NCBI RefSeq assembly: GCF_006345805.1
Contig: NW_021832274.1
Span: forward strand, 9,908-73,907
Length of the DNA stretch: 64,000 nt
Direction: 5' to 3'
Source: Octopus sinensis
Lineage: Eukaryota
Shown here: positions 14,599 to 40,655 of the stretch, piece after piece
Layout: every line of letters starts with the position of its first letter
How positions within the stretch are numbered: position 1 is the stretch's first letter
Program-made: the position numbers and the translations under genes
Notes under the pieces: model-generated
The model's database searches: none
Told to the model about the DNA's origin: nothing
What the model saw: the letters and a program-made list of their open reading frames with translations, nothing else

Positions 14599-14694
<96 letters not shown>

Positions 14695-14778: not shown

Positions 14779-14839
<61 letters not shown>

Positions 14840-15023
14840 TTACATTCATGTATACACGGACATACACGCACACACACACTCACATATGTGTGTGTATGCA
14901 TGTGTGACTGAGGAATTTCCTATAAATATATATTTACAGATAATAGTCCAATATTCGCAATCACACACGTACACCGACACACATACAGACACCAACATAC
15001 ACGTACTCCAACCAACGCACAAT

Positions 15024-15067
<44 letters not shown>

Positions 15068-15594: not shown

Positions 15595-15637
<43 letters not shown>

Positions 15638-15760
15638 CATATATGTATGTATCTATATGCGTGTTTGTATATATTTTATCTTTTAAAAGACATACAAACA
15701 TGTAATATATATAATGTTGTGTGTATATATTATATATAGCGTGTATATATATAGGTATAT

Positions 15761-16068
15761 CACATGATCACGTGACCGACCAGGCCATCAGATGTTGCTA
15801 CACATCGCTGGTCACAATGCGCTTCGCATTGTTTTAGCCTTCGATGACGCCACCTCGCTGGCTAAGCGAGCTGGCCAACAGAAGAAAGTGTGAGGGAAAG
15901 TTGTGGTGAAAGAGTACAGCACGGATCGCCACCACCCCCTGCCGGAACCTCGTGGAGCTTTAGGTGTCTTCGCTCAATAAACACTCACAACGCCCGGTCT
16001 GGGAATCGAAACCGCGATCCTACGGTCGCAAGTCCACTGCCCTAACCACTGGGCCATTGCGCCTCCAC
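15761..16068 (-). mobile_element. tRNA-derived SINE family D with 14-bp TSD
   Basis: Minus strand starts GGAGGCGCAATGGCCCAGTGGTTAGGGC..GGTTTCGATTCCC (A/B boxes); ATATATAGGTATAT on both flanks (15747-15760, 16069-16082). Confidence 0.9.
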
Positions 16069-17469
16069 ATATATAGGTATATACATACATACATGCATAT
16101 ATATATATGTTTGTATGTGTGTGTGTGTGTGTATACACAATACACATACACAATACCCGCATATACACAAATATGCATTATATATGTGTGTGTATATATA
16201 TATAAATGTATATATATAAACAAACACACTTTGATTCATTAATGTAAGTTTGTATGTAAGTACGACGATGCATGTATATATGCGTCTATATATATGATGG
16301 TAGCATAGGCGAATAAGTAAGAATTTATCTTCACAATCATAGCAAACCACGTTCAGTGACATTAGGTCACATATTGGATGAGTAAATTACCACAGAATCA
16401 GATCTTTGTAGGACTTCTGACTGAAACCGCGTTATTCGAAACGACATGGGATGCTGCTTTAATTCAAAAGTCTAGGCTTGCCACATGGTTAATCATGCTG
16501 ATTAAGGGTCGATGAGGGTCGATGCATGATTATAGGTTTCCGTCGAATACTCGGCCAATCGCATGTTAATTTAACGCATATTTCAATTAATAGAAGGATA
16601 AAAAATTTTATAGCCGACAATAGATGACGATCTATAATGCATAAGTTGGTACATATGAACGTACATATATGAATATACTTATATGATTTGTAGAAGTAAA
16701 AATTGACATGAAATAACTCAGCGGTTTCTAGATAAACGCTTACATGCAGAATGTTAAGGAGAATGAAAAATGATGTTATTAGCATAGAAGTTTATGTTGT
16801 AAGAATTGATGGTAAGTAGGCAAAATACACAACTGGGTTAGAGGTCCATCATAATAATTGAAGAATGCTCGAAGAATGCTCTGACGGCGCACGTTTTAGT
16901 TGTACTGTGTGACTTAAAGTTCATTTACAGTGAAACGGAGCTTGTATATAAGCAGGTTTGTGACAGGATTCTAATAAGAAACAAATTTGGAAAGGCTTCA
17001 TGGACACAAAAATTAAGGGTGCTATTCATGGCGGAGGAGTGCATTGCACAGGAAAACAATTTTTATGTAAATCTACAACCAAAGAGGATACCTTTTCCTT
17101 GGTGGTGTATAAATGGCAATTAAGGGCGGTGTGAATCTGATAACAACAAAGCGGACATATATTTATGAGAGCTTTCATGATCCTTGAAGCATTAGGAGTT
17201 GAAACAAAACATTGGAATCTGGAACAGTCAAAGCGGTTGCTCTTGGAACGAAAGATACTGAACACTTTATTCACAGATGAGGTAGACCACATGGAAATAA
17301 AACAAAACAAACAAATAATGCAAGTTTGTTTAAAAGAGAGTTCTAGGTCTGAAATTAATTTTTCACTCAAAATGTTCGAAATACTTGTGACCAGACGCTG
17401 CTTTATATTGGAGATATATGAGCAAATATTTTCACTTGAACTTGTGCACTACACTTAAATGTAATTGTT

Positions 17470-18300
17470 TTCATGTACCGATGAATCTAACACCTATGAC
17501 GAATCGAATCGCTAATAAAAAATAGGAAAATTCTTCCCTCCACAGTTTCAAGTCAGAGACGCCAATGCCATACTCACAAATGCCATAATCAGTTCAAATC
17601 AAAGAATTTTAAGGTGAGATGTTCATGAACTGAGAAAAAGCTTTTAGTGAAAATTCCGTAGCGGTAATAACAATCTTGTTATCATCACACGGTCAGCCAA
17701 CTTGTAACTAGAGAAATCTGTCTCCATGTTTCTAAAGAAGATGTATATAAACTATTATATCACATTCAGAGGGCACTAAAAGGAATCACATCGGTCTAAC
17801 TAAAAGAGGGCACTAAAAGGAATCACATCGGTCTAACTACAAACAATCTTATTTCCCTCAACAACTCCATTCATTGAGGCCAACGAATCTGGAAATTCCG
17901 TCTTTCACAAAATTTGTTCGGAAAATCACATACTAGACATTAACATTTGCCCACTAACATGGGACATAATTGGTAAGAGAACTGATTACTTTAACGTGGT
18001 ACAGAATTGTAGACTTCGTTTCACTAAAAAGTTTCAAATGCAGAAGGAATATACATTTCCTAATCGGAGATCAAAGTTAACCTCCAAATGTCGCCACATA
18101 TAAACTTTCTGCTTAGAAAACTCCTGAGACATTCAAATACTAAAATGAACAAATATCATCTCAAAAATGAATTATTATAAAAAACGGTACAAAGAAGCGC
18201 ACTATCCTTGGGAAGGACACTTCTGATTTGATGAAAATAGGGACTCTCACAATCTCTGAGATATACTGTGTCGGGCCATAACCAAAGAGATTCGACTTTA
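17470..18300 (+). pseudogene. Decayed Penelope-like element: GIY-YIG endonuclease C-terminal region plus probable 3' pseudo-LTR
   Basis: Across frameshifts: NRKIL, CIYKTIISHSEGTKRNHIGLTTN, LTWDIIGKRTDYFNVVQNCRLRFTKKF, NRRSKLTSKCRH, matching the PLE pattern YxA..YIGLT..WxII..CxLCLxEK..LNxRSELxSKCRH; 37-bp internal duplication at 17768-17839. Confidence 0.8.
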
Positions 18301-19089
18301 GAAGAAGTGCTCTTACACCCCCACCAATTTACACACTCTTCGTTACCTTTAATATCATTTTAAGATTCACAAATGCGTAAGTCTTGCGTGTGCCCATGTG
18401 AAATCTCAGTAACGATGAAAAGAAATCAATGACAGCTTCCTACACACACACACACACACACACACTCACACAAACACATACGCCCAAATACATGTGTGTA
18501 TGGGCATACATGTGTGTGAGTGTGTGAGTGTGTGAGTGTGTGTGTGTGCATTTAAAAACGTATATGTTTGCATGTGTGTGTATAGATACTGTACTTATAT
18601 CAATCGATGTACGTTGGCCATCAGAAATTATATGTCGCGACGCAAAGTGAAACATTCCAAAGAACGTATGCAGAAATAACATCGTAAACATAAGCTGCCT
18701 ACTATATACAAAACATACACTCCACCCTACTCATTGTCCTCTATTATACGTTGAACATCGTTATCAAATAAAACATAAGCAATAACTGAATTAAAATTGT
18801 GCATAATGCTGACTGCTAGTTCCATTGAAGTTGGCTTCTTCACGTTCATTAAAAGCAATCTCCTGTCAAAATGAAAAGCATTGAATCGCATCAAGCGATG
18901 GTTTTATGTTCTTTTATAATCAGTGTTTTTAGTGGGTTCGTCACCCCCCTTTCTCACTCCAGCTATATAAACAGCCGTTGCTAATTGATATTTAGTATGG
19001 CGGCCTAGTTATACTTGTTCAAGCATGTATGAACATAAACATAAGTGTGTATGGAAACGTTATATGTAAGTATGTGCATACACCTAGAC

Positions 19090-19202
<113 letters not shown>

Positions 19203-19330
19203 TAGGTAGGTGGATATATAGGTAGGTAGATATACTGATGGACAAATAGATAATTCTATATAAGTATATGCAAAGATAAATGTGTGTGTGTGTATATGTG
19301 TACCTGTTGTGTATATTAGTAAGTGCTCCA

Positions 19331-19618
19331 ATTTAACGTCGTCATATGTACACTCGCGTACTTTTCTTATATTCTTGTGCCAAAGTCAATCTTCCAAACA
19401 GCCAAGGAAGACGATAAAAGGAATGTATACTGATATATTTGTATAACCATAAACCACACCACACCACACCACATCCGCACAAGAAACACGCTCGCACACA
19501 GAGACATACACACATACATACACGCGCATATAAGTATATGTATATATATGTGCATGAGATACATATATCTTTATACACGTGTGTGTCTATATATGTATTA
19601 TATATATACATGTGTATG

Positions 19619-19651
<33 letters not shown>

Positions 19652-19820
19652 GTATATCCATATTCATATATCTTTATACACATGTGTGTATGTATGGTAA
19701 TGTGAATAGATGTACCAATATATGGTCTTTTTATTGTTTTCATTGGTCGTTTCCAAGATTGATATTGGCACAAGAATATAAGAAATGTACGCGAGTGTAC
19801 ATACAACGACGCAAATATAC
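19331..19820. mobile_element. MITE/foldback-like element with ~105-bp imperfect terminal inverted repeats around a microsatellite core
   Basis: ATGTACACTCGCGTAC.TTTCTTATATTCTTGTGCCAA at ~19346-19383 recurs as reverse complement at ~19763-19802. Confidence 0.7.
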
Positions 19821-20448
19821 ATAATTGAAGGTATCAAATCGGAACAAGGTTAAATGCAATAAATAAATAAATGCACTCAATACATGGAATATAGTGTTAG
19901 AATATTAATTGTTAATTTCGTAGATTAAACTCTCACCGAAAGTTTCCTTTTCTTTAAAAAGCTACCAAAGAGAAAGATTACAGAAAAGTTGACAGAACAT
20001 GGATTTATTAATCACGTGAAAGAAAAAATCGTCATCATTTAAAAAATAGTTTATTAATATATGTGAAGGTAATGGTCGCGGTGTAAAATTAAAAAGTTCG
20101 GTAAGTCAAAAAAATATATTAGAGAGGTCGAATTTTATACCTGTTTACACATATACTGTATTAGTAAAGCGTATAACTATGACGGATGAGAAACGTAGAT
20201 AAATAAATTTAAAGTTAAAATAGTAATAATTGTAATGAAGTTGATAGAAAACAAGGGAAGTAACTAGGATGTCTTTGGGATAGTAAAGTAAATTGTAGGT
20301 AATAATTAGGAATTGTTATTTATAATCCAATAGTTTAAATCCAACGAAGTTAGGTTTGTCGTTCATTCTTTCGGGGTTGATAAAATATAGTACTGGAACA
20401 AACAACACTACCTTTCTTCCTTCCATTGGAAGTGGCTGTTCTAGACAC

Positions 20449-20598
20449 CAGTACGCAATTGGTACTCAATTTATCGATCCCGAAAGGAGGAAAGGCCAAG
20501 TCAACCTCGGCGGAATTTGATCTCAGAACGCAAAGACAGACGAAATACCGCTACGCCTTTCGCCCGGCGAGCTAACGTTTCTGCCGGCTCGCCGACTT
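20449..20598 (-). mobile_element. SINE family B monomer (head plus body)
   Basis: Minus strand GGCGAGCCGGCAGAAACGTTAGC..GGTATTTCGTCTG..CCTTTCGGGATCGATAAA. Confidence 0.85.
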
Positions 20599-22562
20599 AA
20601 AAATTAAAGGCAAAATTGGCCGCTGCGGAATTTGAACTCAGTGGGTAAAGAGTGACGAATTGTTGTTAAGAAATTTGTCCCGAGTGTTAAACAATTACTG
20701 ATTATTATGTAAGTAAAAATTAACGATTTATTTAATGTATTTCATGAAAGTGACGAATATGCGGAATGATCTGCTCTAAGAATTACTGATTAAGTAATAT
20801 AAAGAAAATATATATTGTTTGAAGCCAGCTTTAAGAAATATACACATTAAAACAAAATATAAACGGCGGATAAATTAGGGGAAATAAATGCATCAATGAA
20901 TAAATAAATGAAGTTAAATTACTAGGGGCAGTCAACGTACGTAGACAGATTGTACAGTTTTTAATATGATCGAAAATTGAACTAAATATGGTTCAGAGAA
21001 AGAAGGTTACACCTTAAAATATTTCAGCTATTATACGGGGTGGGGGGATACTTATGCTGTATTTTAGGGCCTTTGGGAGCGACATTTAAATACAAAGTTA
21101 TTTGATAATTTATTTTTGAATATGGTGTGCAACATTCTTGATATAAAATCAAGAAATGAAACAGATTTTGTCGTACTTAGGAAGGGTCGTTATGCTAATA
21201 GTAAAAACACGCCCTCGTTGTATTTCACTTCTTATACTATTACTCTGCTACTTGCTAAATAGTCAGCTAGTAGATTGCTTGATTGATGGTTCGGTTAATT
21301 GATTACTCAGCTAGGTTCGTCGGAATACCTTCGTACCATTCCCGATCTCAATGATTTTTTCCTGGATACTCTAGATTATTATAGTAGCAAAGACACCGAA
21401 ACTTCAAGTTTCACCTCTCGGAGGTAATTCAAACTGCTTCAGGGGAATGAAACTTGAAACCACATTGAAACTACACACACACACACACACACACCACACA
21501 CACACACAAACACAAATACACACACACGTATATATTACGTGTTTACTAACATATTGATATATACGCGCAAGTGCGCTTTGATGAGTTAATATTTTGTACG
21601 CATGCTTTTAAATCTTTTGAACCCGTATATTGTAGAACCCATAAAACCATGATTTTTATGTCATTAACAATACTCTGTCTCTTGCTGCTGCTGCTGCTGC
21701 AATTGTTGTTGCTGTTATTTTTGTTGTTTTCTCGGCTAAATTACTTTATGACTAATTCGCAATTTATCATTGAATCATTCTTCTCATCACTAGGTTTCTT
21801 AATTTATAACAGATTACGAGGTCAACAGTCGCATCAAATTGATATCATTAATACGACTATACAAGAGACTGCAGACTTGTTGGCTTCACTTAATTGTGCA
21901 GCCACTTCTGGTATTCTAGAGCAATACTTTGGGGTCAAGTATTTTAATGAGCGTTTAGTTCAGTTAAGTTTACGTTTAATTAGTCTTAATTAGAATATGA
22001 TTTGCTAACTAACTTTGGTAATATATTTAAGATTTAAGTGTTTTCGTTCGTTGTTTCACGGAGTTGGAGTTGTTAAGGTTTAGGTGAGCTCTGATCCAGC
22101 AGGTCAAAACAGCTCTAGACGTAATGATCTTGAGTCTGTTTTTAGATTTAATGTGTCTGGGATTTGATGTTTTAAAGCAGTAATATGGGATTTAACGAAG
22201 AAGCGGTTACCACTTTTAGCAGGTCGAGAGACAAGATCGAGGTTTCAAGAAGATACTGCCGTCGGTGCGTTGTATCATTATTTATAGAACTCAGATATGT
22301 ATTTGCTTATCTGTATTGAAACCATAAATGTGGCGGATTTGAACCACTGCTCTAAGTTAATGACATACGCGCCTGTTATAGATGTTTCCCGTGGTATAGT
22401 GTTTGATATACCAGTAATTGCCTGTCGTTCACCTGGACACTCTGGATTACTTCTTTTGGCTCATAAACACAATCAGACTCTCTCTCTCTCTCACACACAC
22501 TCACACATATTTACACACATTCTCACACACTCTCACACACACACACATATACATATATATAT

Positions 22563-22594
<32 letters not shown>

Positions 22595-22595
<1 letters not shown>

Positions 22596-23002
22596 GGCTG
22601 TGTGGTAAGTAGCTTGCTAACCAACCACATGGTTCCGGGTTCAGTCCCACTGCGTGGCATCTTGGGCAAATGTCTTCTGCTATAGCCCCGGGCCGACCAA
22701 TGCCTTGTGAGCGGATTTGGTAGACGGAAACTGAAAGAAGCCTGTCGTATATATGTATATATATATATATATATATGTATGTGGGTGTATGTTTGCGTGT
22801 CTGTGTTTGTCCCCCTAGCATTGCTTGACAACCGATGCTGGTGTGTTTACGTCGCCGTCACTTAGCGGTTCGGCAAAAGAGACCGATAGAATAAGTACTG
22901 GGCTTACTAAGAATAAGTCCCGGGGTCGATTTGCTCGACTAAAGGCGGTGCTCTAGCATGGCCGCAGTCAAATGACTGAAACAAGTAAAAGAGTAAAAGA
23001 GT
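22595..23002 (+). mobile_element. SINE family A
   Basis: High identity to the other family A copies; AAAAGAGT repeat tail. Confidence 0.9.
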
Positions 23003-24804
23003 ATATATATATATTCCTATATCTATATGAGTGTATATACTACAGAATATACGAACATATACAGATAAATGTATACATGCTATACGAATGTAGATAGCTA
23101 CAGTTATTGAAATTTTTCAGTTTTTATAGAAGTAAGACTTACATCATCTCCAACTTTTCATTTTATTACTTACAAGTTTGGTTCTTTAACAGACCGCAAT
23201 GTTTCTCTGATGCTAGACGAAAGTTTTAATATGCTTCGATCAGCAAAATTGCTTCCTGAATAATTTCCAATAAATACAACATTTCTTTAAATCGACGAAT
23301 GAAAACCATAATCCATGCAAATAGAATTCATTGGAATACTGCATTTACAATTTTATATTGCCATTATTAAATGCAAGAGCATACTAAAATCTTAGTAGAA
23401 TATCTAACCCTCACCTAACAAGGCGCATGTCTATGTAATATGATTACATTGATTGGGTTATATGCGTAGCTTATAAAGCTGTCGATAGTTATTCTAATTT
23501 TCTTAATATACTTTCGATTTTAAGACTTGATAAGAGTTTTAGCTGTTGCTTGTTTTATTTGATATGTTCTTAATGAAGACATGCATTTCCATAGTAAATT
23601 TTTAAAAATGGCATTAGCATTTAGATGTGTATGCATGTTTAAATGCAAGTCAATAGTTTTATGTGTATGTGTAGGCAGTGTGCGCTTTTGCGTGTGTTTG
23701 AATGAATGTGTCTAAAAAACTGATGCAAATATTTGCCAATGCAATTGTCATTTTTACGTAAAGTTACTGTAAACCATATTTATTTACAATAAGCATTAAA
23801 AAAAACGAATAAAACAATAGCATGATTCAAAAATAGAATAACAATATAATAAATATCAGGTAAAATGTGACATTAATGCAATAAAAATTGGATTCCTGCT
23901 TTCCATTAGAGATTTAGGCTGAAAGAGATGTTTATTTTCGAGTGAGAAAATATTCTGGAGATTATTCATGTCCATTTATCATGTGAATCCGAAGAAAATA
24001 AATGCATTAAAGGATTTTAATTCTGGGTTTATTGAAAGGATTGCTGTTTACAAAATGTTAGCGTGAGGCTAGTGTTATTCAAAAGATTTTTGTTCAGTCC
24101 ATTATCTAAATTTAGCTGATATTTACTATCATAATTCTGTACAGATATAAAAGAATATAAAATAAATGCCCTTTGTCCAAATGTCTTGGTTTGATCAGAA
24201 CCATATAAACTTAGTATGTATTATAGTTTTTAAGATTCTGATAGTGTGCGCTGTTGTAACTGGTGAAGTATAGGTCAGAAGAATTAAGAACGAATATTTT
24301 TTCTGACTTTAGTAAAAGATATTCTTCTCCAAAGAGTATTACTGAAGCTTGAAAGATGATCGATAACAATGTATAGAGAGTTAATGTTTAGAGTAATTTC
24401 CAAACATTGTAGTAAGTGGCAACTCACTCGAAATTACAGTCATGGTTGTCTGACCGTTTCCGATGATAATGACAATACCGCTGTATCGTAAACAGATTTA
24501 TAGTAACAACATGTTAGAATTTCTTGAACGGGAGAATGTCAGCAACGCACGATAGAATTTGATTTCAATGACATTTACAACCCCAACAGGAATAAACGAA
24601 TTCTGTAATCTTCTTAGAATCGGAGATAGTAAACAACTTTTGGAGAACATACTAAAAATATAGTTAAACTACTTCTAGTGAAGTTTTGTTACCTAACACC
24701 AAGTTGCGTTCTTAATTTTCTTCTATATTTACATCAATACACAGTATTCATAAGTTTTTTTGCTCATAGTGATAGACATCTAAACTTAATCGTTGCACGT
24801 CGCT

Positions 24805-24955
24805 AGGAGATGGTATGGGTTAGCTTCCCTGCTCGCAATTATATCGGATGCAGCTGTGCATCGTTAACCAGCTAGAGGGGATGTCCTCTTGGGGTTAATA
24901 AGTCACAGTAGAATCCGCTCGACCGGCCAGCCATGTTTAAGTAGCTAAGAATATA
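24805..24955 (+). mobile_element. Diverged relative of the hammerhead-bearing element at 44226-44795
   Basis: GAGATGG..GCTTCCCT..CCAGCTAGAGGGGATGTCCTCTTGGGG..ACAGTAGAATCC..AGCCATGTTTAAGTAGC aligns to 44645-44790. Confidence 0.65.
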
Positions 24956-27347
24956 ACCTTTTTATCGTTTTTCACCTAAAATATGCCACATCCAGGATCC
25001 TATATTTCTCTCGATTTTGCAGTCGCTCCGTATTCTGAGCCAATGTCTCTTTTTTTCTGAATTGGTATCATATCATTTATAATATAACATTTACTGAATT
25101 TTATGCTATTGATATGAAGAGCTGTGCCTCTCCAAACCATGTTCAAGTTATCAATAAAGGAGAGGTAAGAGGTTTCAGTGCGAGAAGTTATGATACCATA
25201 TTATTTATATTGATAAAAACACGAAGAATATAATTCTTATATTAAGTTTATTATTTTAATGGTATATCTGCAAAATATTTTCGTGGTTGAAGACACCCAG
25301 CTTACTGTGCTGTGAAATCAAACCCAAAACTACTTAAATTGAAAGTGACTTCTTCGCCACATATCTGCACCTCTAAGACAAACTTTAAATGAGGAATTAA
25401 AGACATAAAATTTTTAGGTTTCTAGTTGGGGTTAAAGTAGTGACGATAGTTTTCCGTTGTGTGTACTTATGTAAAATATTTTACAGGAACTAAATTCTAT
25501 TTATATCGCCATAGAATTCTAGAGTTTCAAGAGAAATCCACTGAATAGAAAGTAACTATTTATCTGCATATAACATTTTAAGTATTTGACATATCATTAA
25601 TCTAATTTTATGTTTAAATCTATCCTCGCTACCATATTGTAATGTCTCACAAAGAAAATACAATAATGTATGAAAAGTAGGACAGATGGTTCAAAGGTGG
25701 TGGTGTAAATAGAATGCATGGCTTTCTTGTACTTTCCAAAGACATTGGCGTCAAAAGTGAATGCAAATAAGTTTTATCAATAACTGAAACCATGTTGCTG
25801 AAAAGGTTAGCCGGGGACGGAGATTGAGACGTGCTGTGTAAATACTATCTAAAGTAGTTTGGTACAAAGAATGTGTATATAAAAGAGGCAATAAGTTATA
25901 GCACGAATGACCTAAATGAATTCTCAACGAAATTGGAATTAGATAGTTAGGGAAGCTGAGTTAAGTAAATTTAATATGTCACTCGATTTAACATCACACC
26001 TGGTCTGTCGGTATTTCTAATGACAGCCACTCGGCTTGGCGCATTTGGACCGAGTCTTATATCCGAATATACCGTCTAATATTTGCTGAAATTCCGTTTC
26101 GGAGGTCCTGAGAAGGGTGTACAGGAACTAAGTGAATGAAACAAAATAGAAAAGGATTTTCGACATTGAGGAGTTGTGTTTCAATTTCGGTTAAGAGAAA
26201 GCTCAATAACGTTATTAAGTTTTCGATTTAATGTAAACTTATCTAAAATATTAATTTCTTGCAAAAAGAATCAAGCCCTCTCATTTAAAGAAATATGAGA
26301 CTCTTTGAATGCCATTTGGACTATTTTAAACACTACAGAGATGCTTGCTACTGGTGTTTTAAGTTATTATTTTCATCGGCGACACTTGATGTTATATTAG
26401 TTTATGATCAATGTGAAGAAAGGATTATAGTGTTCATACTTTTAGCAAGTATTTTGATGCCGTAAAGAGAGAGAGAAATCATTTGAAGGTTGATACGAAA
26501 CTGGGTCGCTGTTTCAGTTGCTTTGGAACATCGCGACTACACTGCAGCACACCCTACGCATATTGACATTCTGTTATAAACAAACAACGTCTGAATTGGT
26601 TATGACTTAAAGAGAAAAGATGAATGTTTGTTATCGATGACCCTGGCAGTTGAACATGTGGTTCATAGCAGTACTTCGATTGATTAATGCATTATGCTCG
26701 GCTTATGCCCTCCTTTCGACTGGCATTTCGTTGTACTTACTACAAATTATAAAATTGTAAAACAAAATTTAAAATAAAATAGCCAAGACAGGAACCAATA
26801 AATCAACTTTTCATTCGATCTGTATCTAGTCTAAATTAGTTTAGCTCCAACATCACCCCTTATTTACTATTAAATGTCTGTAAATGGCGCCAACGTCAAA
26901 ATAAACACAACACCATTCTTTGAAAAATATTTGCCGAATAAAAAATATAATACGAAATATGAACCAATGTAACAAACACAAAAGTATATATGTGATGATG
27001 TATCTACCTTATAGTCTCATTACAAGAGATATGCTGTGTGTATTGAAGTATGTATTAGAGTGTGTGCGCAGACTACTTTTTTTTATCAGCATTTAAATAT
27101 TGCACACGCCAGATATAACTACTGATAAATGCTCACAAAAACACATACCCACACACATTTACACTGACAGATACGCACATATACAAATACATGTATATAT
27201 ACTGGATATATACTGCTATATGTGGGTGTGTCTGTGTGTATACACATCCATATATCATCGTTTAAACGTTTAAGTTCCTTGCCGACACGAGTTATGTATG
27301 GAAAATTTGAAAAAGAGTGAGATTGGTGAACCATTGTGCTTTTAAAG

Positions 27348-27408
27348 GCAGTGGGACTGAACTCGGAACCATGTGGTTGGTAAGCAAGCTACTTACCACA
27401 TAGCCTAT
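27348..27408 (-). mobile_element. SINE family A head fragment
   Basis: GCAGTGGGACTGAACTCGGAACCATGTGGTTGGTAAGCAAGCTACTTACCACA. Confidence 0.85.
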
Positions 27409-27442
27409 AGAATATATATATATATACATGAGTGGGGGGTAT

Positions 27443-27500
<58 letters not shown>

Positions 27501-27571
27501 GTATATAAATATATATATAAACACACACACACAGATATTGTATTGTAAAATTTGCGCTTAATATGATATCC

Positions 27572-27683
27572 ATTTTTGTCTGTTTTAGGTAAGTACCACT
27601 CCCAAAGCAAGAGGTTCTTCATTCCTATTGCTAACTATTTCCTTAGCAACTGTCTACATTTGTCTGTTCTTGTACAGGTAAGT
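27572..27683 (+). promoter_or_regulatory. Candidate recursive splice site(s) / RS-exon
   Basis: TTTTTGTCTGTTTTAG|GTAAGT (AG 27587-27588) and TTTGTCTGTTCTTGTACAG|GTAAGT (AG 27676-27677); branch-point-like TGCTAAC at 27629-27635. Confidence 0.5.
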
Positions 27684-28191
27684 ACTAGCATTTCTCTTTT
27701 AGAATGTTGTTATAGATAACAAAGAAACGATTCTTTACGAAAAAAACAATTAGAATGTTTTGACATCAGTATGGTATCAGTTATAAACCTATATGGCCGT
27801 GTTCACATTTTCTATTGGAGTCATGGACTAATCGTGCGTTTGGCGTTTGAAATCTGGCGGCACTCTTGTGTGTTCCGCTGGGAACATAGACAAAATATTC
27901 CAGAGCGATCGGACGAAATAGAGAGAAAATGTGAAAGCGAGAGAAAAAGAAGAAGAGGTGGAGAATAAGAAATAGAGGATGAGAAGGGGAAGCGGGTGAG
28001 AAGAGGAGGAATTGAAATCTGATATCAACTTGTACTTTATTTATCAGCCCTGAAAGGATGAACGTCAAATTGTTGACCTCTGCAGCACTCGAACTCGCTA
28101 CATAGAGGCATAGAACAAATACTGCAAGGCATTGTACCTGATATTCATACGACTACATGAATTAATGGCCTCTTTGTTGCAAATAAATGAA

Positions 28192-28271
<80 letters not shown>

Positions 28272-28288
28272 CATTATTACACTTATTA

Positions 28289-28522
28289 TTGAGTGAGAGA
28301 GCAATGGATGCCATCAAAGTGACACTGGGGTTAAATATACGAAGCCCAGTATACCCATCATGACTACCCATCTGATAAGGGTACACCAGGCACATGCATC
28401 ACAAACATATGTGCGCGACATAGTAATCTCTTATCAAGATAAACATCGCATGACCCTGCAGTTGGGGGCCAGTTAGAATTTTCATCATGTCAAGTAGCCC
28501 ATCCCGCTCAAAAAGTCCTTGA

Positions 28523-28619
<97 letters not shown>

Positions 28620-28870
28620 CATTATTACACTTATTATTGAGTGAGAGAGCAATGGATGCCATCAAAGTGACACTGGGGTTAAATATACGAAGCCCAGTAT
28701 ACCCATCATGACTACCCATCTGATAAGGGTACACCAGGCACATGCATCACAAACATATGTGCGCGACATAGTAATCTCTTATCAAGATAAACATCGCATG
28801 ACCCTGCAGTTGGGGGCCAGTTAGAATTTTCATCATGTCAAGTAGCCCATCCCGCTCAAAAAGTCCTTGA

Positions 28871-28871
<1 letters not shown>
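28289..28871 (-). mobile_element. Two tandem copies of family C repeat (348-bp period) separated by (ATT)n
   Basis: 28289-28522 and 28637-28871 appear identical by eye. Confidence 0.9.
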
Positions 28872-28947
<76 letters not shown>

Positions 28948-29394
28948 AAACTGTTAATTTATATGTCGGGCTCAGTGAAGGGGCCATGCGCAAATAAAAA
29001 AGCTAAAAATGTTGGTTATGGTTTAAACTACTGTATATGTAGCATTGATCTTTCCTTCTTACTGGTATATTTATGCCACTACTGAAAGTATGCTTTGGAA
29101 GAGGTGCTGTTTGCCCTGCAATTTAGAAATTATATGTACATATATAATTAACATGTGCAATATATGGAACGTCAATGTACTCAGTAGAAATAAATATATG
29201 GTGTAGAAAAATATAATAGTAGATACTTACAAATATGTTCTGGTTTGCACGGGAGACAACTTTAGGCATAATTCTGTATTATTCTTATCTTCTCGACAAA
29301 GCGCAATATTTCAGTCTATTTCAGTCTACTTACCGAAATAATTATAAAATATAAAGCAGAAAAAAACTCAAAGTTTTGGGGCAGAGATATATCT

Positions 29395-29822
29395 TTTATA
29401 TTTTACCATTTTCAGTTATTGGACTGTAGCAATGCAGTTACTACAGTTCAATAACTGTATATATGAAATGAACTTGAAAATAAACTGTATATGTAAATAA
29501 AGTTGAAAGGTTTAGTCACGAAAATGGACCCTAGTACTTATTTCCAAGTTTATTACCTACTGTATCGTTCTCTTGTGCCAACTCGCTAAGTTATGGGGGC
29601 ATAAACAGACCAACACGGTTTCCAGTGTTGGCGTGGCAAACACAGACACAAAGAGACACACAAACTCATGTATATATATATATTTATAAACGACGAGCTC
29701 CCACACAGTTTTTCGTCAGTCAAATCCATTTACAAATCCTTATAGAAGACGCCCACGGTTACGTGTAGTGGAACTGAACCCCAAAGCACGTCATTTCGAT
29801 ACAAGCTTCTTAACCTAACAAC
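29395..29822 (-). mobile_element. Degenerate SINE family A
   Basis: CGCTAAGTTATGGGG, CAAACACAGACAC, GTAGTGGAACTGAACCC collinear with minus-strand family A. Confidence 0.65.
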
Positions 29823-29943
29823 TATTGACGAAGATAAAAGACTCTAAGAGACAGTAAGTATCAATTATCAATGAATAACTAATGCTCACATCTCTTTAAT
29901 TGTTACTGTATATAAAAACCTTAATGAAAAGAGGACTCTTTAG

Positions 29944-30728
29944 TACCTATTTCTTTACTACCCACAAAGGGCTAAACACAGAGATGACAAACAAGGACAG
30001 ACAAACGGGTTAAGTCAATTATATCAACCCCAGTGCGTAAATGGTACTTATTTAATCGACCCCGAAAGGATGAAAGGCAAAATCGACCTCGGCGGAATTT
30101 GAACCCAGAATGTAACGGCAGACGAAATACCTACTTCTTTACTGCCCACAAGGGGCTAAACATAGAGGGGACAAACAAGGACAGACGAACGGATTAAGTC
30201 GATTACATCGACCCCTGTGCGTATCTGGTGCTTATTTATCGACCCCGAAAGAATGAAAGGCAAAGTCGACCTCGGCGGAATTTGAACTCAGAACGTAACG
30301 GCAGACGAAATACTTATTTCTTTACTACCCACAACGGGCTAAACACAGAGAGGACAAACAAGGACAGTCAAACGGATTAAGTCGATTACACCGACCCCAG
30401 TGCGTAAATGGTACTTATTTAATCGACCCCGAAAGGATGAAAGGCAAATCGACCTCGGTGGAATTTGAACTCAGAACGTAACGGCAGACGAAATACTTAT
30501 TTCTTTACTACCCACAGGCTAAGCATAGAAGGGACAAACAAGGACAGACGAACGTATGAAGTCGATTACATCGACCCCCAGTGCGTAACTGGAGCTTAAT
30601 TTATCGACCCCGAAAGGATTAAAGGCAAAGTCGACCTCGGCGGAATTTGAATTTAGAACGCAGATTGGACGAAATACCGCAAAGCATTTCGTCCGGCGTG
30701 CTAACGTTTCTGCCATCTCGCCACCTTA
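29944..30728 (-). mobile_element. SINE family B concatemer: one tRNA-like head plus four ~184-bp bodies, 11-bp TSD
   Basis: Units start at 29944, 30128, 30311, 30494; TCTTTAGTACC at 29937-29947 and 30729-30739; body contains GTCGACTTTGCCTTTCATCCTTTCGGGGTCGATAAA, resembling the Meta/MESC SINE domain (recalled, not searched). Confidence 0.9.
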
Positions 30729-31344
30729 TCTTTAGTACCGTCTAAAGAACATAGGAATACTGGAAAGTTTCTTTGAATTCCACTCAGTGTATACTATGGC
30801 TTACTATGAATAAATAAATCTTACGAGCTCCAGTGCATCGCTTCTTCAGGGAGAGGGTGATATTATGTTATTAAGAAGGCACACGGTTTAGTGCTTCGAA
30901 ATATAAGAAGCAGGTTTAAATTTAGCAAGGAAACAATAAACCTGTGCGTTCGTACTATTTTAGAAGCAGGTGATTCAATTATTACAAACGGCTCTGTCCC
31001 TTCTCGTACTCAGACCTGACAATGGTTGGTCATTAGTAGGTTGACTGGTTTAATTTCGGTTGCAATTCGCCATTAATATTCCTGATCGCCAAATCTCTTG
31101 AAGAAAACTTCACTTTAACTGTGCATTAATATTCTTAGCACTTGTGATGAGAGGTTGCCGTAGTGAATAAATTTTGCCAATTTGCAGATCTAAACAAATA
31201 ATGATGCGCACATACATACAAATAGATACATATATACGTAAATACATATCTGTCTGTCTATAACCAAGTCTCGTTCTCTCACTCTTATTATACATATATA
31301 CATACATACGTACGTATGTAAGTATGTATGTATCTGTGCATGAA

Positions 31345-31413
<69 letters not shown>

Positions 31414-31513
31414 ACACACACACACACATACACACACACATGCATACATACACACACACACACTCAGACAGACAGACACACACACACAAACACACACACA
31501 CACACTCACATAT

Positions 31514-31547
<34 letters not shown>

Positions 31548-32029
31548 AAACATCACCAACTCTCTTCAAGATATTTTCACTTTAACAAGGCATCAATACT
31601 CTTAGCAGTTGTGCTTTATTTACGTTCAAGTAATAATAAAAGCCATTTTAATCTGAATGGTTACTTTATACTTTTGTAGAGGACAAATTTATTATTCTTA
31701 AGCAAGAATGTCATTGATAGTGACTTCGAAGTTTTGACTTAGCTGGCCGAAACTTTGAAGTCATTGCTCGACTGTCTGCATATGCAAAAACAAACACACA
31801 TACACACGCACACATACTCACACGCGCACACACATAGACGCGCACGCACACACACAGATTTACTATTCCACATACCATTATACATATATTGGTATGTATG
31901 AGTGTGTTTGTGCCGATGTATAAATTTTCCCGAATATGAAAACGCTCTCTAGCGCGCACACATACATAAATACATGCATGTATACATATATATATTTAAA
32001 TCTTTAAATGTTTTCAGTTTCAAAGCTGT

Positions 32030-32371
32030 GGTCATCACCGTTGGCTGCGCTACACCATGATATGAAACATCCTCTGATATGTGGCATCTGGTGAATAAGG
32101 GAGTTTGATATCGCTACCCTCATCTGTGTTTCGTGCCGTAAGGTAGGCTCATCAGGGACCGTTGGCAGGAAGAGATCCAGTCTTGTTTTGAAGACATCTA
32201 CATCTACACCATGCAGGCCTCTCAGGCCTTTTGGAAGGATATTGAAAAGCTGTAGGCTCTTGAAACCCCAGCTGTTGCAGTATCTGATCCTATATTTTGA
32301 GTGACGCCGGAATCTTTGGTACTATGCAGCGGATGCAGTGTCGCCCTGTTCTTTCTGTTGGTATATCTTTC
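32030..32371 (-). mobile_element. 3' end of CR1/L2-like LINE ORF2
   Basis: Minus strand RTGRHC..IVPKIP..YCNSWGFKSLQLFNILPKGLRGLHGVDVDVFKTRLDLFLPTVPDEP. Confidence 0.75.
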
Positions 32372-33271
32372 AATGCCAAAGGACACATGAATTTATTCAG
32401 GAAGTTAAGCAATCCAGGAAAATCAATGAGGTCGTGTGTCAGAAAACGACAATCAGAAATGTTGTGCATGAAGACATCAGATACAAATCTTATGTGATGA
32501 GGAGAGGTCAATTCATGTCAGATACAAGAAACAAAATAAAACCGTTTAATGAGAGCCAAAAGACGCTTGAACAAACTTAAAAATCCATCATAAGATGGTG
32601 TAATTTGTTTTTTCTCAGATGAAAAACCTTTGACCAGGACCAGAAAACTAACAGAAGAAATGGGAGATGACTATGTGCAGAACCTTCTGAGATTCCGAGA
32701 ATAATGCACACAAAATTTCTTGCAAGTCTCATGGTTTTTGGTGTTGTTAGCAATGAAGGTCATGTGATGCCTCCTCACATTTTCTTCACAAAGCTTTACG
32801 GTGAATGTTGCTGCGTATATTGATGTCCTGGATAAAGTTGTTAAGCCTTTGACCAACGGTGTCTGCAATGGAAAGCGTTACACCTTTCAACAAGATTCTG
32901 CACCATCACACAAGGCTGAAAAGATACAAGAATGGATGGCCGACAATTTGCATGATCACATCACCCCAAAAATTTGGCCTTCTAATTCTCCAGATCTCAA
33001 TATACTGGACAACTATGTATGGAGCATGTTTGAGAAAAATGTTAATGAACACGCCCTTAGCACCAAAGGTTCTTTGAAAACTGCTATAGTTCGAGTCATG
33101 TCCGATATGAACAAGGACCACTTAATCGAGCTTGCAGTTATTGATGCTTATAGTGGTTTTATTTAATGTTTATGTTAAATTGATAATTTATAAAAATACA
33201 GTTTTTTCTGTTATCAAATAAGCGTTTTTTTTTAAACCATAAAACTGTCCTCAAATACCGTCCGCACGCTG
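32372..33271 (+). mobile_element. Decayed, 5'-truncated Tc1/mariner transposon, DD37D (maT-type) transposase pseudogene
   Basis: FFSDEK..FQQDSAPSH..WPSNSPDLNILD with 37 residues between 2nd and 3rd Asp; stops and frameshifts; right end ..CCGCACGCTG|TA. Confidence 0.9.
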
Positions 33272-34205
33272 TATATAACAAATTAAATCGATGGCTTATT
33301 TGCAATTTGAACCTATAGAAATAGAGTGCTTTGTGACTTTCGAGTAATTTTAACTCTTGTTTCTAGCAATATCTGGTGCTCACCAGTACTCTCCGTAACT
33401 TTTATGACCTCCCTCTCTCTCTTTTTCCCTCTTTCTCTCTCTTTCTCTATAAATGTGTATGTACATATATATATGCATTTATATATATATATATATATAT
33501 ACATATATATGTGTATGTATATATATATATACATATACATATGTATACATACATATATATATATTAATATATATATATATATACATATGTATACATACAT
33601 ATATATTCATTTATATGTATATACATATATACATATACATATGTATACATACATATATATTCATTTATATATTATTGTATATACATGTGTGTATATATAA
33701 ATATATAAGTGTATGATATTAGTATGTCTTATGTATGTGTGTGTTAACGATCACCAAATTTTATAGGTTTTAAAGATGGCGTTTAAGATAAAATGTTCGT
33801 TGCTTTATACTTTACAAACAAAATACAAAAGCCGTGTCTACGATAAAGAATTACGAATTAGATTTCCGATATCTCTGAGGAGCAATTTCAAAATAGGTGG
33901 TTATAGTTCGTGACATCACGCATACACACACACACACACACACACACCCACACACACACACCCACACACACACACACATACATAATACATACAAACATAC
34001 ATACATGCATAGATACATACCTATATAAATATGTGTTTATGTGTGCGTGCGTGTGTATGTATGTGTGCCTGTGTACATACATACATACATACATACATAT
34101 ATACATAGTACATGCATATATAAATATGTATGTGTGCGTGTGTAGGTCTGTGTGTCTCTGTACATACATTACATACATACATACATACATATATACATAC
34201 GTACA

Positions 34206-34248
<43 letters not shown>

Positions 34249-34250
34249 AC

Positions 34251-34281
<31 letters not shown>

Positions 34282-35269
34282 GGTCAGTGTTTCTGTGTAG
34301 ATACATACGTATAAGTTCTTGTAAATCAAGTGATTTAATTAAAAATTAATCACCTAAACTTAATCTACTTGTTCAGTGGAAGTTATGTCTTACCTTTTTA
34401 TTGCAATGAAGAGACATATTTATGTGTCGTATTCCCCATCAACAAAATATTATCCACTCAAGCCAGAGTACTTTTTTTCCATTCTCTTCTTTTTTCTACA
34501 ACCAAAGATCAAGTTTTTCCCACAATGATGCAAATTAACTTTGATTAACTTTAAAATTTGTTTCTTAACTTCTGGAAAATATATTTACTTTTAATCTACA
34601 ATTACGTCTTTTTTAGTTCGTTTGCTTTCTTTCTTTACATAAGTTATAATTTTCAATTAATTTAGAATGTCTTGTGTACCCCATTCTGTATATAACCATT
34701 TAGTCTTTAAGTGCAAATTTGTACCATTGTCTAAGTCGTTTCATTTCCTTTAGCTCATTTCATCTATTAATTATGTAAATCATATTTACTATAAATTCTA
34801 GGCAACTAATTTACCTGTAAATGATCAAACAAGCTGTAAACTATATACTCTGCTGACTTTTCCAATAGGTTGTTGCATCTCCAATGTAATCCGTTGATTG
34901 CAAACAAAAAGTAAGACTTTCTTGCAGGTAGAGAAATTAGCCACAAGCCATTAAGTTATAATTTCTTAAAACAATTTTATTATTATTATTAAAGCTATTA
35001 AAATTTACCCCTAAGTCTGCGTTTTCTCTCACCAAATATGATGTATATTTTAGATTGATGTGCTATTCTGTTAATTGTGGCTTATTGTATTGATTTCATC
35101 ACGTCTTTACTTGCTAAACGCTCCTTTTCATAACTTCTGAGAATTTTTACCTTTTCAGTGAGGTCGATATAACTTGTCTGCTGGCAAATATACCTTGGGA
35201 TAAATATATCAGAACATTTAAGCAGCTAACTGGCAGTGTCCTTTGATCATCGAATTAGTTCCGACTATG

Positions 35270-35303
<34 letters not shown>

Positions 35304-35571
35304 AAGCGCTGAGTTCGAATCCCGCTGAGCTGAACTTTGTCTTTAATCTTTCCGATATCAATAAAATAGAACTAATCTAAGGCGGTGGATTGGCTGAACT
35401 TTAACACCGTTACACCAGATACTTTGTGGTATTTGTTGCGTCTCTTTGAGTTCTGATTTCGGATCCCACCATGGCCTACTAAATTGGGAGACCTAGATTA
35501 AGGTTAACACCGCAATCTGATACACCTCGGTCGTCTTTAGCAGAGCGCCTTAGTCGCTGCCTCACCTTCTA

Positions 35572-35652
<81 letters not shown>

Positions 35653-35653
<1 letters not shown>

Positions 35654-35866
35654 CAACAAGGATATACAGAGGTATGCAGTACGTTAGTTTCATGCAACTC
35701 CATTTAATTTAAATGCATTGCTCAATTAAATGGAGTTGCATGAAACTGCATTGCCTCTGAATATCCTTGTTGCATATTTTGATTTTAATCACCTTACTTT
35801 GAAATTGTATGGATAATACCGTACTAAATTCTGGTGCCTCAACTTAAGTACCATATTCATCTGAAT
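35653..35866. mobile_element. Fold-back element in (TA)n, probable inverted Penelope-like pseudo-LTR remnant
   Basis: Arms 35653-35709 and 35724-35773; minus strand reads GAAAC-TAAC-GTA (hammerhead 3' half). Confidence 0.65.
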
Positions 35867-35897
35867 CTCTCTCTCTCTCTCTCCTCCTCTCTCTCTC

Positions 35898-35943
<46 letters not shown>

Positions 35944-38462
35944 TATACTACTTTCCTACCATATGTGACTTGATGGACATTCGACCAGCCACATTTGTAA
36001 TTACAAAACATAAAATATATTGTTCTTGAGTTTTAGTCTTTGCTGTATGTTTAAGAGGCTTATTTTGCAATAACGTGGTTTCGAGTTTAGTGACACTGTG
36101 CATTGCCAGGAACAAATATTCTTTACTATAGTCCCAACTGGCTCCCTTCGAATTTATGCAATTTCATTACTCTATATAGCTTGTAGTGAATGGGCTTCGG
36201 TGAAATGTGAAACCCGAAGCAAATTAGTCCAGTGTTTCTTATAATGAGATAGGGGATGGTGTTGATGATTGCAAAGGGATCGGACAACCGGCCATATTTA
36301 ATATATTTAAAATGCTTTTAAATTTTTAAAGGGATCAAAAGTTATGGTGCAGAAAAAATGATTATATGGAGGCGAATTCTATTCTGTTTCCTCATAAATA
36401 AAAACCAAAGAAACGTTATCCACCAGAAAGAAAATAATACCCACCCTCCAAAAAAAAATATCAAAACAAATTAAAACAAAAGACTATTTTTGGTCTGGGA
36501 CTGGCTATTGTCAATTTAGGAACCACTGAAATTAGTTTAAGACATTTGTTCCAGTATCTACATATAACCATTTGATAAAAAGATTTAACTTCCTCTAACT
36601 AGATTTGACCGAAATACATCTATACTGTTGTTTTGCATCTATTTTTTAATTCTGATCTTAATTTCGTATGAGTGATAGGTTGGTCTTTTATTTTTAGATA
36701 AACCAACTCTGTACAATGTAAACAAGAGACAAATATATCGTTAATATAATTTCATGACAATAATTTGTTGTTGTATCGAATATTTGACAGCGCACTTATT
36801 TGATTACTCCAACGAATATAGCGGAGCAGATTCGTAGTCGGAGTATCTGAAACGTTCCGAAATAGTATGAACGTTGCTTATATGAGATTAAACATGCCGA
36901 GCATAATTTACGCGGGAAAATTAAATAAAGAAATGAAATATAAACAAAACAAAATTCCTGATTTGTTGAATACCTTTTAAATCATTATATTGTAATTTGC
37001 GGAACTTTTAGTCAGCAGAAATAAATTAGATTAATGGGTAAGCCTTTAGAATCGTCCAATAGCATATGTGTATATATATACATACCTACATACACACATG
37101 CATACATACATATATGTATATATAAACGTCCAATAGCATATGTATATATATGTGTATGTATGTATGAATGTATGTATGTATGTATGTATGTATGTATGTA
37201 TGTATGTATGTATGTATGTATATATGTATGTATAGACAGATACATATATATAGTTACATATATATATACATATATATATATACAATCATACATACATATA
37301 CATGTGTGTGTGCTATTGCATGTCTATATATATATATATATACACACACAAGCGCGCACGCATAAATACAAAAATATACTCATCCATACTTATACCCATG
37401 TGTGTGTGCATGCACTTAGATATGAACGCATATGTATATCGGCTTCCGTTTGTGCCAAGAATCTGATTGATGTGCTATTCTGTTAGAGCGGGAGTATGCT
37501 TTACTAACAAGGACGATGATGATGATGATGACGATGATGATGATGATGATGATGATGATGACGTTTGTGTACCTTTTTAATTGCTGTGTCTAAAACCAAT
37601 TAGGCGGCTTTATAAACAGATTACAATAAAATTCTTACTGGACTGAAAATAGGTTTTCCGGTTGATACGATTGACTAAGCATTTGAAGATTTTTGCCCCA
37701 GAATGGTCGTACTGCAATGACTGATGCCTCAAAATAAAATAAATAAATAAATAAATAAATAAATAGATACATAAATGAAAAAGGAACTCGCGTGGCTGAT
37801 GTAATTCCTGATGATAAACACGAGACATCTCCTACACACCGAAGTTTCTCTTATGAGCGAGAACATTGAGGTGCTTTACAATAAGGTATTGACTGGTTTG
37901 AAACAGCATACTAGATTTGCAATGACTAGACAACAAAATGTTTGTTATGAGGTCGTAGACCTGTCTTAGTTTTACTCTGAAGTTGAGTTCATACAGCTTG
38001 TGACATGATCAATATGATCCACTTTTTTTCTAAGCATTGCAAAGCAAAATGTAACACAGCTACGTTGAAATGCACGATCTATATACTTACTTTCGTGTCG
38101 ATTTCCGCTCTATATATGTGATGTAGCTTGTAACTAAATAGAAAACGTGAGAACTTAGCAAATCAATTTCCTTTAAGAACATAAGCAGTTTCTCTTTGAG
38201 ATTATCTTCCACAACGTAAGTCAATTGGTACGTGAAACATATTAGGAAGATCTGTAATGCCGACATATATAAATACAGGTATAAGCCTGCTCCTGTAGTC
38301 ACAGTTTTATGAAAGTGCATGGCAAAGGTACAATGATTTCAGTTTTTACTTGCCAGTTCAGGTGTCGCGAATGCATAAATACTATCTCTTCCTCCCACAC
38401 ACGCGCACGCGCGCTCATATTTATATATGTGTGTGTGTGAGTGTGTCTGTTTGTGTATGCCC

Positions 38463-38523
<61 letters not shown>

Positions 38524-38535
38524 AGAGAGAGATAG

Positions 38536-38567
<32 letters not shown>

Positions 38568-38624
38568 GATAGATAGATAGATAGATAGATAGTAGATAGA
38601 TAGATAGATAGATAAATAGATAGG

Positions 38625-38715
<91 letters not shown>

Positions 38716-38744
38716 GTTTAAGAGAAGAAACCAACGACAAGCAA

Positions 38745-38906
38745 CTCAATCAACATTGAACGACATTATCTGCCAGAAATATATAAGATTAAAAAATTAT
38801 CTACTTAATACCTACAATTACTATTCTGAATCAAATACATTATATGTATATGATATTTAATCTTATATATCTCTCTCATAGATAATGTCATTCAATGTTG
38901 ATTGAG
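38745..38906. repeat. Imperfect ~50-bp inverted repeat between (GATA)n and (TA)n tracts
   Basis: CTCAATCAACATTGAA..ATATATAAGATTAAA (38745-38793) pairs with 38856-38906. Confidence 0.75.
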
Positions 38907-38987
38907 ACGCTAATAGTGGAAAATTCGTATTAGTACCACTAAATTGAATTTCTCTCCCCTGTGGACTCGGAAATAAATTCCCTAATA

Positions 38988-39049
<62 letters not shown>

Positions 39050-39519
39050 GTGTGTGTGTGTTTCTGTGTGTGTTTCTCTGTGTGTGTGTGTGTGTGTGTG
39101 TGTGCTTACGTGGGCATATGCGTATGTATGTATGTATCTATGCATGTATATGTGCAGATTTGTATGTTTTGCTTCATATATGTATTCTCATGCATATAGT
39201 TGCATATCTAGATATGCTAATATATATTTAAATGATAAACTTATGGAAAGTTTTACAAATTTTTACAGTTCCAGGCATGGATTGGATCTGTAGTTTTCGA
39301 ATTAGCTTTCTACTTTCTGGTTTTGAGAAGTCTAATTCCTCACGATTGTTATTTAAGCAGTATGTATATGTGCATGCATTTATATATGTATATATATGTA
39401 TGTATGTATGTATGTATACATACAGTTACCATGTAGGCACTTTAAATAGTTTCATTTTTTTTATAATTAAGATTTAAGCGGTTAATATATGAATACAAAA
39501 GAGATAGTTGAATGACTGT

Positions 39520-39542
39520 AAACCTACTTTTGGGCCACCCTG
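39520..39542. mobile_element. Solo Tc1/mariner-like terminal inverted repeat
   Basis: ACCTACTTTTGGGCCACCCTG followed by TA; reverse complement CAGGGTGGCCCAAAAGTAGGT has the usual Tc1/mariner end shape. Confidence 0.55.
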
Positions 39543-39566
<24 letters not shown>

Positions 39567-39575
<9 letters not shown>

Positions 39576-39880
39576 ATTGGTGAATTGAAGAAATGGAGCT
39601 GAACGCAGATTGAACAGAAATCGTTTTATTTCATTCTACACGTGTTTCGAAACACGTGTAGAATGAAATAAAACGATTTCTGTTCAATCTGCGTTCAGCT
39701 CCATTTCTTCAATTCACCAATAATGTTTTAATTTCAATTATCCGCACCAACGCACGGTTGCAACGCCAGATGGTTGTACCTCCAACCGTGCTGTTTACTG
39801 CTGTGATTTTTGCTACTAAGGTATCGGTTAAACTTTTGATTAATCTACTACAAGATTATTCATCTTTCTATTTCACATAA
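39567..39880 (+). mobile_element. Perfect 164-bp palindrome plus ~150-bp tail in (TA)n; probable Penelope-like remnant
   Basis: 39567-39730 is an exact palindrome centred on TTTC|GAAA; right arm begins GAAAC-ACGT-GTA then AATAAA. Confidence 0.75.
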
Positions 39881-39917
39881 TATATATATATATAATTATA
39901 TATATATATATATATAT

Positions 39918-39968
<51 letters not shown>

Positions 39969-40599: not shown

Positions 40600-40655
<56 letters not shown>

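Follow-up and report, generated by a model that had tools for sequence, protein, structure and literature searches.

A used acceptor and probable recursive splice site, likely in the first intron of an octopus glutamate-receptor gene

In transcript contigs of sequencing run X3, and likely in those of X1 and X2, exon 1 of an octopus glutamate-receptor gene is spliced to an acceptor ending at position 27588 of the window—by which term we refer to the whole stretch of 64,000 nt analyzed here—and this acceptor is a used 3' splice site. We consider it probable that the site is an intronic ratchet point, or recursive splice site, through which the giant intron 1 of that gene is removed stepwise, the second cut being one that we infer: the ratchet-point motif, a likely position within a long intron, on its sense strand, an upstream junction that recreates a donor, and a short out-of-frame cryptic exon with a downstream donor were found together at this place. 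Flies and vertebrates are known to splice some long introns recursively, and the largely open-access literature searched yielded no description of such splicing in octopus, cephalopods, or molluscs. New in the present case are a first-step splice junction in transcript assemblies, a named host—a major excitatory receptor—and a matching site in a paralog; if the reading is true, recursive splicing would extend to a third lineage of bilaterians, one whose introns and nervous system were enlarged independently.

A sequence-only reading of this DNA had described two AG/GTAAGT junctions 89 nt apart (the slash standing for the splice position), together with a TGCTAAC motif and an internal acceptor, all of which are present in the sequence at the positions claimed; a 231-nt stretch here has a single match in genome G000. 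The elements concerned are the following:

27557..27562, plus strand: branch-point-like CTTAAT, with a putative branch A at 27561, 27 nt 5' of the acceptor (from the sequence, its use as a branch being presumed)
27570..27588, plus strand: polypyrimidine tract and TAG acceptor, in use as the 3' splice site for exon 1 (junction contigs in X1, X2, and X3; the X3 letters lead to exon 1)
27586..27594, plus strand: ratchet-point motif TAG/GTAAGT, with TAG at 27586-27588 directly followed by GTAAGT at 27589-27594 (sequence)
27589..27677, plus strand: 89-nt candidate cryptic exon, or RS-exon (frame test and anatomy)
27629..27646, plus strand: TGCTAAC (27629-27635) and internal acceptor ending at 27646 (sequence)
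27647-27677, plus strand: candidate 31-nt microexon bounded by the internal acceptor and the second donor (sequence and frame test)
27675..27683, plus strand: second CAG/GTAAGT, with CAG at 27675-27677 and GTAAGT at 27678-27683, the likely downstream donor of the RS-exon (sequence and frame test)
28182..28187, plus strand: AATAAA, 593 nt 3' of the acceptor, a candidate poly(A) signal (sequence)

The site fits (Y)nNYAG/GTAAGT, that is, a 3' acceptor fused to a 5' donor; and the second CAG/GTAAGT, to judge by its own pyrimidine tract and CAG, itself looks like a second ratchet point. With respect to number, YAGGTAAGT occurs twice in the window against a mean of 0.90 in shuffled sequences, 23 of 100 of which contained two or more, so that the count lies within chance. 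This count speaks for splicing noise, in which a strong acceptor that arose by chance within a giant intron would catch a small share of the exon 1 donors and lead to dead-end RNA. With respect to spacing, simple arithmetic gives a probability of about 0.002 that two randomly placed sites would stand so close on one strand. When YAG/GTRAG was considered throughout the 73.9-kb contig, a filter for a pyrimidine tract and an AG-free stretch was passed by two of the three sense sites and by none of the antisense sites (0/1), the two that passed being those described here. A third plus-strand AG/GTAAGT, at window position 50108, has pyrimidines at 6 of 17 positions and an A, not a pyrimidine, before the AG; this occurrence is likely due to chance or else a lone donor. 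The earlier suggestion that the twin sites might be an old duplication is weakly supported by a short stretch that their flanks share (p = 0.028 when one flank was shuffled and the motif kept constant).

The transcript evidence consists of assembled contigs, from which rare forms are dropped, in which RNA ends are invisible, and whose depth cannot rank the parts of a gene; the RNA status of all the runs used is, furthermore, the guess of a tool. Eight runs guessed to be RNA contain 27–73% of the words of 27520-27960, and contigs were aligned over the site for X1, X2, X3, and the small-share run X9, the runs with the junction coming from studies P1 and P2. In three of these four runs, and thus in two studies, a long contig aligns from 27586 onward and carries foreign letters before that point—20 in X1, 20 in X2, and 25 in X3—the junction being represented by a single long contig in each run. 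The 25 letters of X3 have one match in the 2.7-Gb genome, at C1:124697210-124697234 on the minus strand, which match ends 3 nt before the exon 1 donor and is followed by TAG and then by GTAAGT. These foreign letters were read directly for X3, while an exon 1 origin for those of X1 and X2 was deduced from their length and position. Because TAG is common to the end of exon 1 and to the acceptor, the junction falls at 27588/27589, and the joining of exon 1 to 27589 restores a nine-letter donor, TAG/GTAAGT, that is identical to exon 1's own. The plus-strand transcript predicted by the sequence-only reading accordingly exists in the contigs of X1, X2, and X3; and of the two junctions that reading had proposed from an upstream exon, the one to 27589 was recovered in those same runs, with no joint listed at 27678.

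The junction contigs run uninterrupted through both GTAAGT sites, and their 3' ends lie at 28013, at 28061, and just past 28185; among the rows listed for the three covering runs, no joint or loose end falls at 27646 or 27677. Upstream of the junction, 27535-27578 is without contig cover in all four runs, and the cover of X9 near the site is confined to 27838-28083, where the junction is not included. The contigs start with 23 exon 1 letters plus GTAAGTA in X1 and X2 and with 28 plus GT in X3, which starts would fit branch points at k = 31: those of X1 and X2 would be as expected if the branching were against the unspliced exon 1 donor, and the 28 letters of X3 are what branching against an exon 1–exon 2 junction should give, the first two letters of exon 2 being GT. 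This geometry is compatible with a recursive intermediate and is not a saw-tooth measurement. The contigs of X1, X2, and X3 also display an A>G difference at window position 27687, which lies 10 nt inside the intron that follows the second donor and has a TAG context; this change could reflect A-to-I editing, a process with a preference for sequence context, or else an allele, the latter being possible because about 1% of sites differ between these runs and the genome.

The upstream exon encodes a signal peptide, ends in phase 1, and constitutes exon 1 of a gene on C1 with 16 colinear exon matches to P0001 over 350 kb. This host gene matches Octopus proteins named glutamate receptor 2; the protein, of about 907 codons, has ANF_receptor, Lig_chan-Glu_bd, and Lig_chan domains (Pfam) and finds its best PDB matches in vertebrate GluA chains, so that the host would appear, from these best matches and the source names, to be an AMPA-type ionotropic glutamate receptor. 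Exon 2 starts at C1:124574872, and the assembled intron 1 measures 122,334 nt with two 100-N gaps, located 1.6 and 73.9 kb after exon 1. The contig of the window, C8745, is 73,907 nt in length, with the site 37,496 nt into it, and likely fills one of those two gaps, a placement that rests on the junction and not on DNA linkage. The corresponding feature is thus:

1..64000, plus strand: part of intron 1 of the AMPA-type receptor gene with exons on G000:C1 (from the exon 1 junction, the intron gaps, and a contig without a receptor exon; the gap placement is presumptive)

With C8745 included, intron 1 would come to some 196 kb or more, and the site would by arithmetic leave pieces of at least 39 and 157 kb in the one case and of at least 111 and 85 kb in the other, depending on the gap filled. 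No credible tblastn match to the host receptor's exons was found on C8745, and when 138 plus-strand frames, namely the 89-nt frame and 137 others lying upstream of the site or over it, were scanned, none attained the Pfam cut-off; these results agree with the earlier description of a stretch lacking evident exons. The ends of C8745 showed no overlap with the gap flanks of intron 1; and the idea that C8745 might be a haplotype copy of the assembled intron was discarded, as there were only two repeat-sized matches, of 361 and 419 nt. As to the earlier claim of a giant plus-strand intron, the junction fixes the strand and the host, and intron 1 is large; the position of the contig within that intron would be the one deduced above. 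The junction moreover ties an unplaced 74-kb contig to its gene.

Certain other observations concern the same gene. The database models P0004 and P0010 are without the signal-peptide exon 1 and have another N-terminus, as would be expected if a giant first intron defeats gene prediction. Exon 2 begins as CAG/GTGGTA at C1:124574872, a weak donor-like start. At C1:124646918 (minus strand), within the same intron 1, stands a second ratchet-like CAG/GTAAGA with a pyrimidine tract, followed 169 nt on by a CAG/GTAAGT, the piece between them being microsatellite-rich.

The mechanism that we propose would operate in two steps. In the first, the one seen in the contigs, exon 1, with its signal peptide and in phase 1, is joined to 27589, where the 89-nt cryptic exon, closed by the 27678 donor, would make the acceptor recognizable deep in the intron through exon definition. 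In the second step, the recreated TAG/GTAAGT would be spliced to exon 2, and the cryptic exon along with the remaining intron would be dropped; the product would be identical to that of direct exon 1–exon 2 splicing and would leave no distinct junction behind. In mouse, 103 lower-count AGGT junction candidates are described without a saw-tooth (PMC8797253), so that a junction alone constitutes no proof.

The joining of exon 1 to exon 2, whether direct or recursive, keeps the reading frame. The sequence-only reading had proposed a cryptic exon, and the frame test upheld it: the 89-nt exon is out of frame, and its retention would cause a frame shift and a stop at codon 76, while retention of the 31-nt microexon leads to a stop at codon 80 and read-through to one at codon 81. 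Since all the outcomes other than exon 1–exon 2 joining stop at codons 76–81 of about 907, only the recursive cut would rescue the transcripts that enter the site. The cryptic-exon peptides were found in none of the 16 proteins P0001–P0016. We also considered a last exon encoding a GPI-anchor or membrane tail, in view of the phase-0 frame from 27589, which comprises a hydrophobic 30-mer with a stop inside the second GTAAGT; this candidate was rejected because exon 1, as joined, has phase 1, and reading it in the frame concerned puts a TAG at its end.

By an approximate matrix, not octopus-trained, the downstream CAG/GTAAGT scored 8.94 and the recreated TAG/GTAAGT 6.51, an order opposite to the general, though not absolute, trend for the recreated donor to exceed that of the RS-exon; and a stronger downstream donor, under the competition model (PMC8605326, PMC8797253), favors some inclusion of the 89-nt exon over clean skipping. 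The higher score of the downstream donor, approximate as the matrix is, argues for a poison cassette exon, in which the 89-nt exon, or the 31-nt microexon, would be regularly included by means of the stronger 27678 donor and the RNA would undergo nonsense-mediated decay, with the contigs representing a half-spliced intermediate. The early stops in both inclusion forms point the same way, as do the mouse cases, described in PMC8797253, in which strong downstream donors accompany junctions from the RS-exon to the next exon. The 101 nt of 27586-27686, for which no difference from the genome is listed in three runs (0/101) against 12 in the next 327 nt of X3 (Fisher p = 0.08), might hint at constraint on the cryptic exon. 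Nevertheless, the rows listed for the three covering runs show neither a joint nor a loose end at either of 27646 and 27677—a point tempered by the fact that contigs drop rare forms and that inclusion RNA would be degraded—and, were a poison exon the sole route, every transcript entering the site would be destroyed. We hold the poison exon to be very unlikely as the explanation of the site.

The main rival of recursion is a cryptic or alternative last exon, in which circumstance exon 1 would be spliced to 27589 and the RNA cleaved and polyadenylated some 600 nt on, so that an 80-residue signal-peptide stub would attenuate receptor output and the GTAAGT would be incidental or secondary. That the contigs pass both GTAAGT sites without joints and end between 28013 and just past 28185 is in keeping with this scheme, as are the AATAAA at 28182, where cleavage is putative, and the occurrence of cryptic last exons in neuronal genes, within long introns (PMC7997972). 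A last exon, however, needs neither the perfect donor at +1 nor the second donor 89 nt on, and the same motif is present in intron 1 of a paralog, as described below. The ends of the junction contigs, for their part, are also accounted for by two elements that would break contigs, a SINE-like repeat (28025-28069) and, from 28192 on, a run of (ATT)33; the former is a short high-copy element, likely a SINE-type repeat, with very many contigs in all four runs. Of further relevance is a region well beyond the AATAAA:

51200..53700, plus strand: intron stretch 24-26 kb past the site, contig-covered in X1 and X2 (contig alignment)

This stretch is largely unique, and the contigs of X1, X2, X3, and X19 were aligned there. 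In X2 a single 2,589-nt contig extends over the whole 2.5 kb, and in X1 28 of 30 bins are covered, whereas X3 has only a 170-nt piece and repeats. The deep-intron material of X1 and X2 could be either nascent RNA or DNA, and the sparse cover of X3 would be compatible with either a last exon or a poly(A)-type library. With intronic sequence from 24-26 kb downstream present in X1 and X2, the junction contigs of these two runs do not have to represent a mature last exon. Upon weighing these points, we judge the last exon to be an unlikely account of the junction, although it might, like the poison exon, operate beside recursion as a minor exit.

The window contains, in addition, near-identical tandem duplications at 28192-28946 (348 nt, 99%), at 29944-30660 (183 nt x 3.9, 88%), and at 53721-54626 (428 nt, 95%), the first and the last being bounded by microsatellites; these may be either recent duplications or assembly stutter. 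A frame at 32768-33166 on the plus strand may represent a fragment of a Tc1/mariner transposase, which it resembles in motif, and a duplicated frame at 5798-6915, also on the plus strand, resembles a retroelement fragment.

Genome-wide, the strict motif Y10-N-YAG/GTAAGT occurs 213 times, a figure that includes ordinary exon donors, against 68 occurrences of a same-composition GTTGAA control and 109 and 102 of reversed patterns. The best donor at +20 to +200, as scored by the approximate matrix, was slightly higher behind the first 30 of the 213 sites than it was for a set of 30 taken from the 68 controls (p = 0.035), and those same 30 sites exceeded their own flanks (p = 0.012), strong donors being present in 5/30 versus 2/30. 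A second glutamate-receptor gene is situated about 2.2 Mb away on C1; its exon 1, found by protein search, lies at C1:122446438-122446304 and its exon 2 at 122168516, with a gap-free intron 1 of 277,782 nt between them. That intron contains one strict site, at C1:122278324 on the sense strand, with pyrimidines at 16 of 16 positions and a donor 36 nt on, against an expectation of about 0.011 from the genome-wide density; the site was noticed before the exons were located. The looser filter also lets through a single weaker site of this intron, on the antisense strand.

With these counts at hand, splicing noise gains some ground from the fact that background accounts for roughly one third to one half of all strict motifs in the genome, in addition to the motif count of the window; against it stand the junction, present as a single long contig in three runs and two studies, and the strict sense-strand site of the paralog intron. 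We consider noise highly improbable as the source of the junction, and a ratchet point continues to be the probable reading of the site. Strict motifs also occur between ANF_receptor exon matches, on the same strand as their neighbors, at C3:146756726, which site is within a 456-kb gap between colinear exons, and at C8:22412722, 24376244, and 24506579; these were picked out post hoc among the matches listed (100 of 213), and none of the 68 control motifs falls within those C3 and C8 spans.

A broader proposal, which we put forward tentatively and regard as unlikely, is that the AMPA-type receptor genes of cephalopods have long had intron 1 recursion in common and that the present copy has become a three-way switch setting receptor dose. 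The parts of such a switch would be the recreated donor, the stronger twin AG/GTAAGT 89 nt on, the internal acceptor, and the poly(A) signal; and through them neurons would choose, at the first intron, between a full-length receptor message and a destroyed or truncated one.

With the SFPQ-repressed cryptic last exons (PMC7997972), the octopus site shares an unannotated acceptor in a long intron, the joining of the upstream exon, and a downstream AATAAA; those exons, however, lack a saw-tooth and terminate at a poly(A) site that is in use, whereas the octopus exon starts with a perfect donor and its cleavage is putative. With recursive sites in mouse and human brain (PMC8797253)—the vertebrate brain sites being those of Sibley et al. 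(2015), as cited in PMC8605326 and PMC5126111—the likeness extends to the AGGTAAGT motif, the pyrimidine tract, a first intron of over 51 kb, a neuronal gene, and a stop-bearing RS-exon; and mouse sites with strong downstream donors exist (PMC8797253). The octopus case differs in that its host is an ionotropic glutamate receptor and in that the mouse criteria were a saw-tooth plus nuclear-over-mRNA enrichment, while those used here were contigs. The terms "gria," "grid," and "grik" have no occurrence in the main text of PMC8797253; and among the literature matches listed, in the parts available, none was evidently on recursive splicing in glutamate receptors.

In comparison with Drosophila (PMC8605326, PMC6110457), the octopus site is in a mollusc, has a cryptic exon of 89 nt versus the approximately 50 nt typical in flies, and has a downstream donor that outscores the recreated one and is itself preceded by CAG and a pyrimidine tract, a third acceptor lying between the two donors; the fly class, furthermore, is marked by saw-tooth, lariat, and conservation, whereas the octopus likeness rests on the motif, the junction, and the anatomy of the cryptic exon. 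The octopus motif is the fly ratchet consensus, (Y)nNCAG/GTAAGT, except for T in place of C at -3 (PMC5126111). As in the Drosophila ratchet points with RS-exons (Ubx, kuz, Bx; PMC8605326, PMC6110457), a fused acceptor and GTAAGT are located deep in a long intron, a short out-of-frame cryptic exon with a downstream donor follows, and a junction joins the upstream exon to the site; in the RS-exon logic of the fly, a molecule that has arrived at the ratchet site yields the full message by re-splicing from the recreated donor (PMC8605326).
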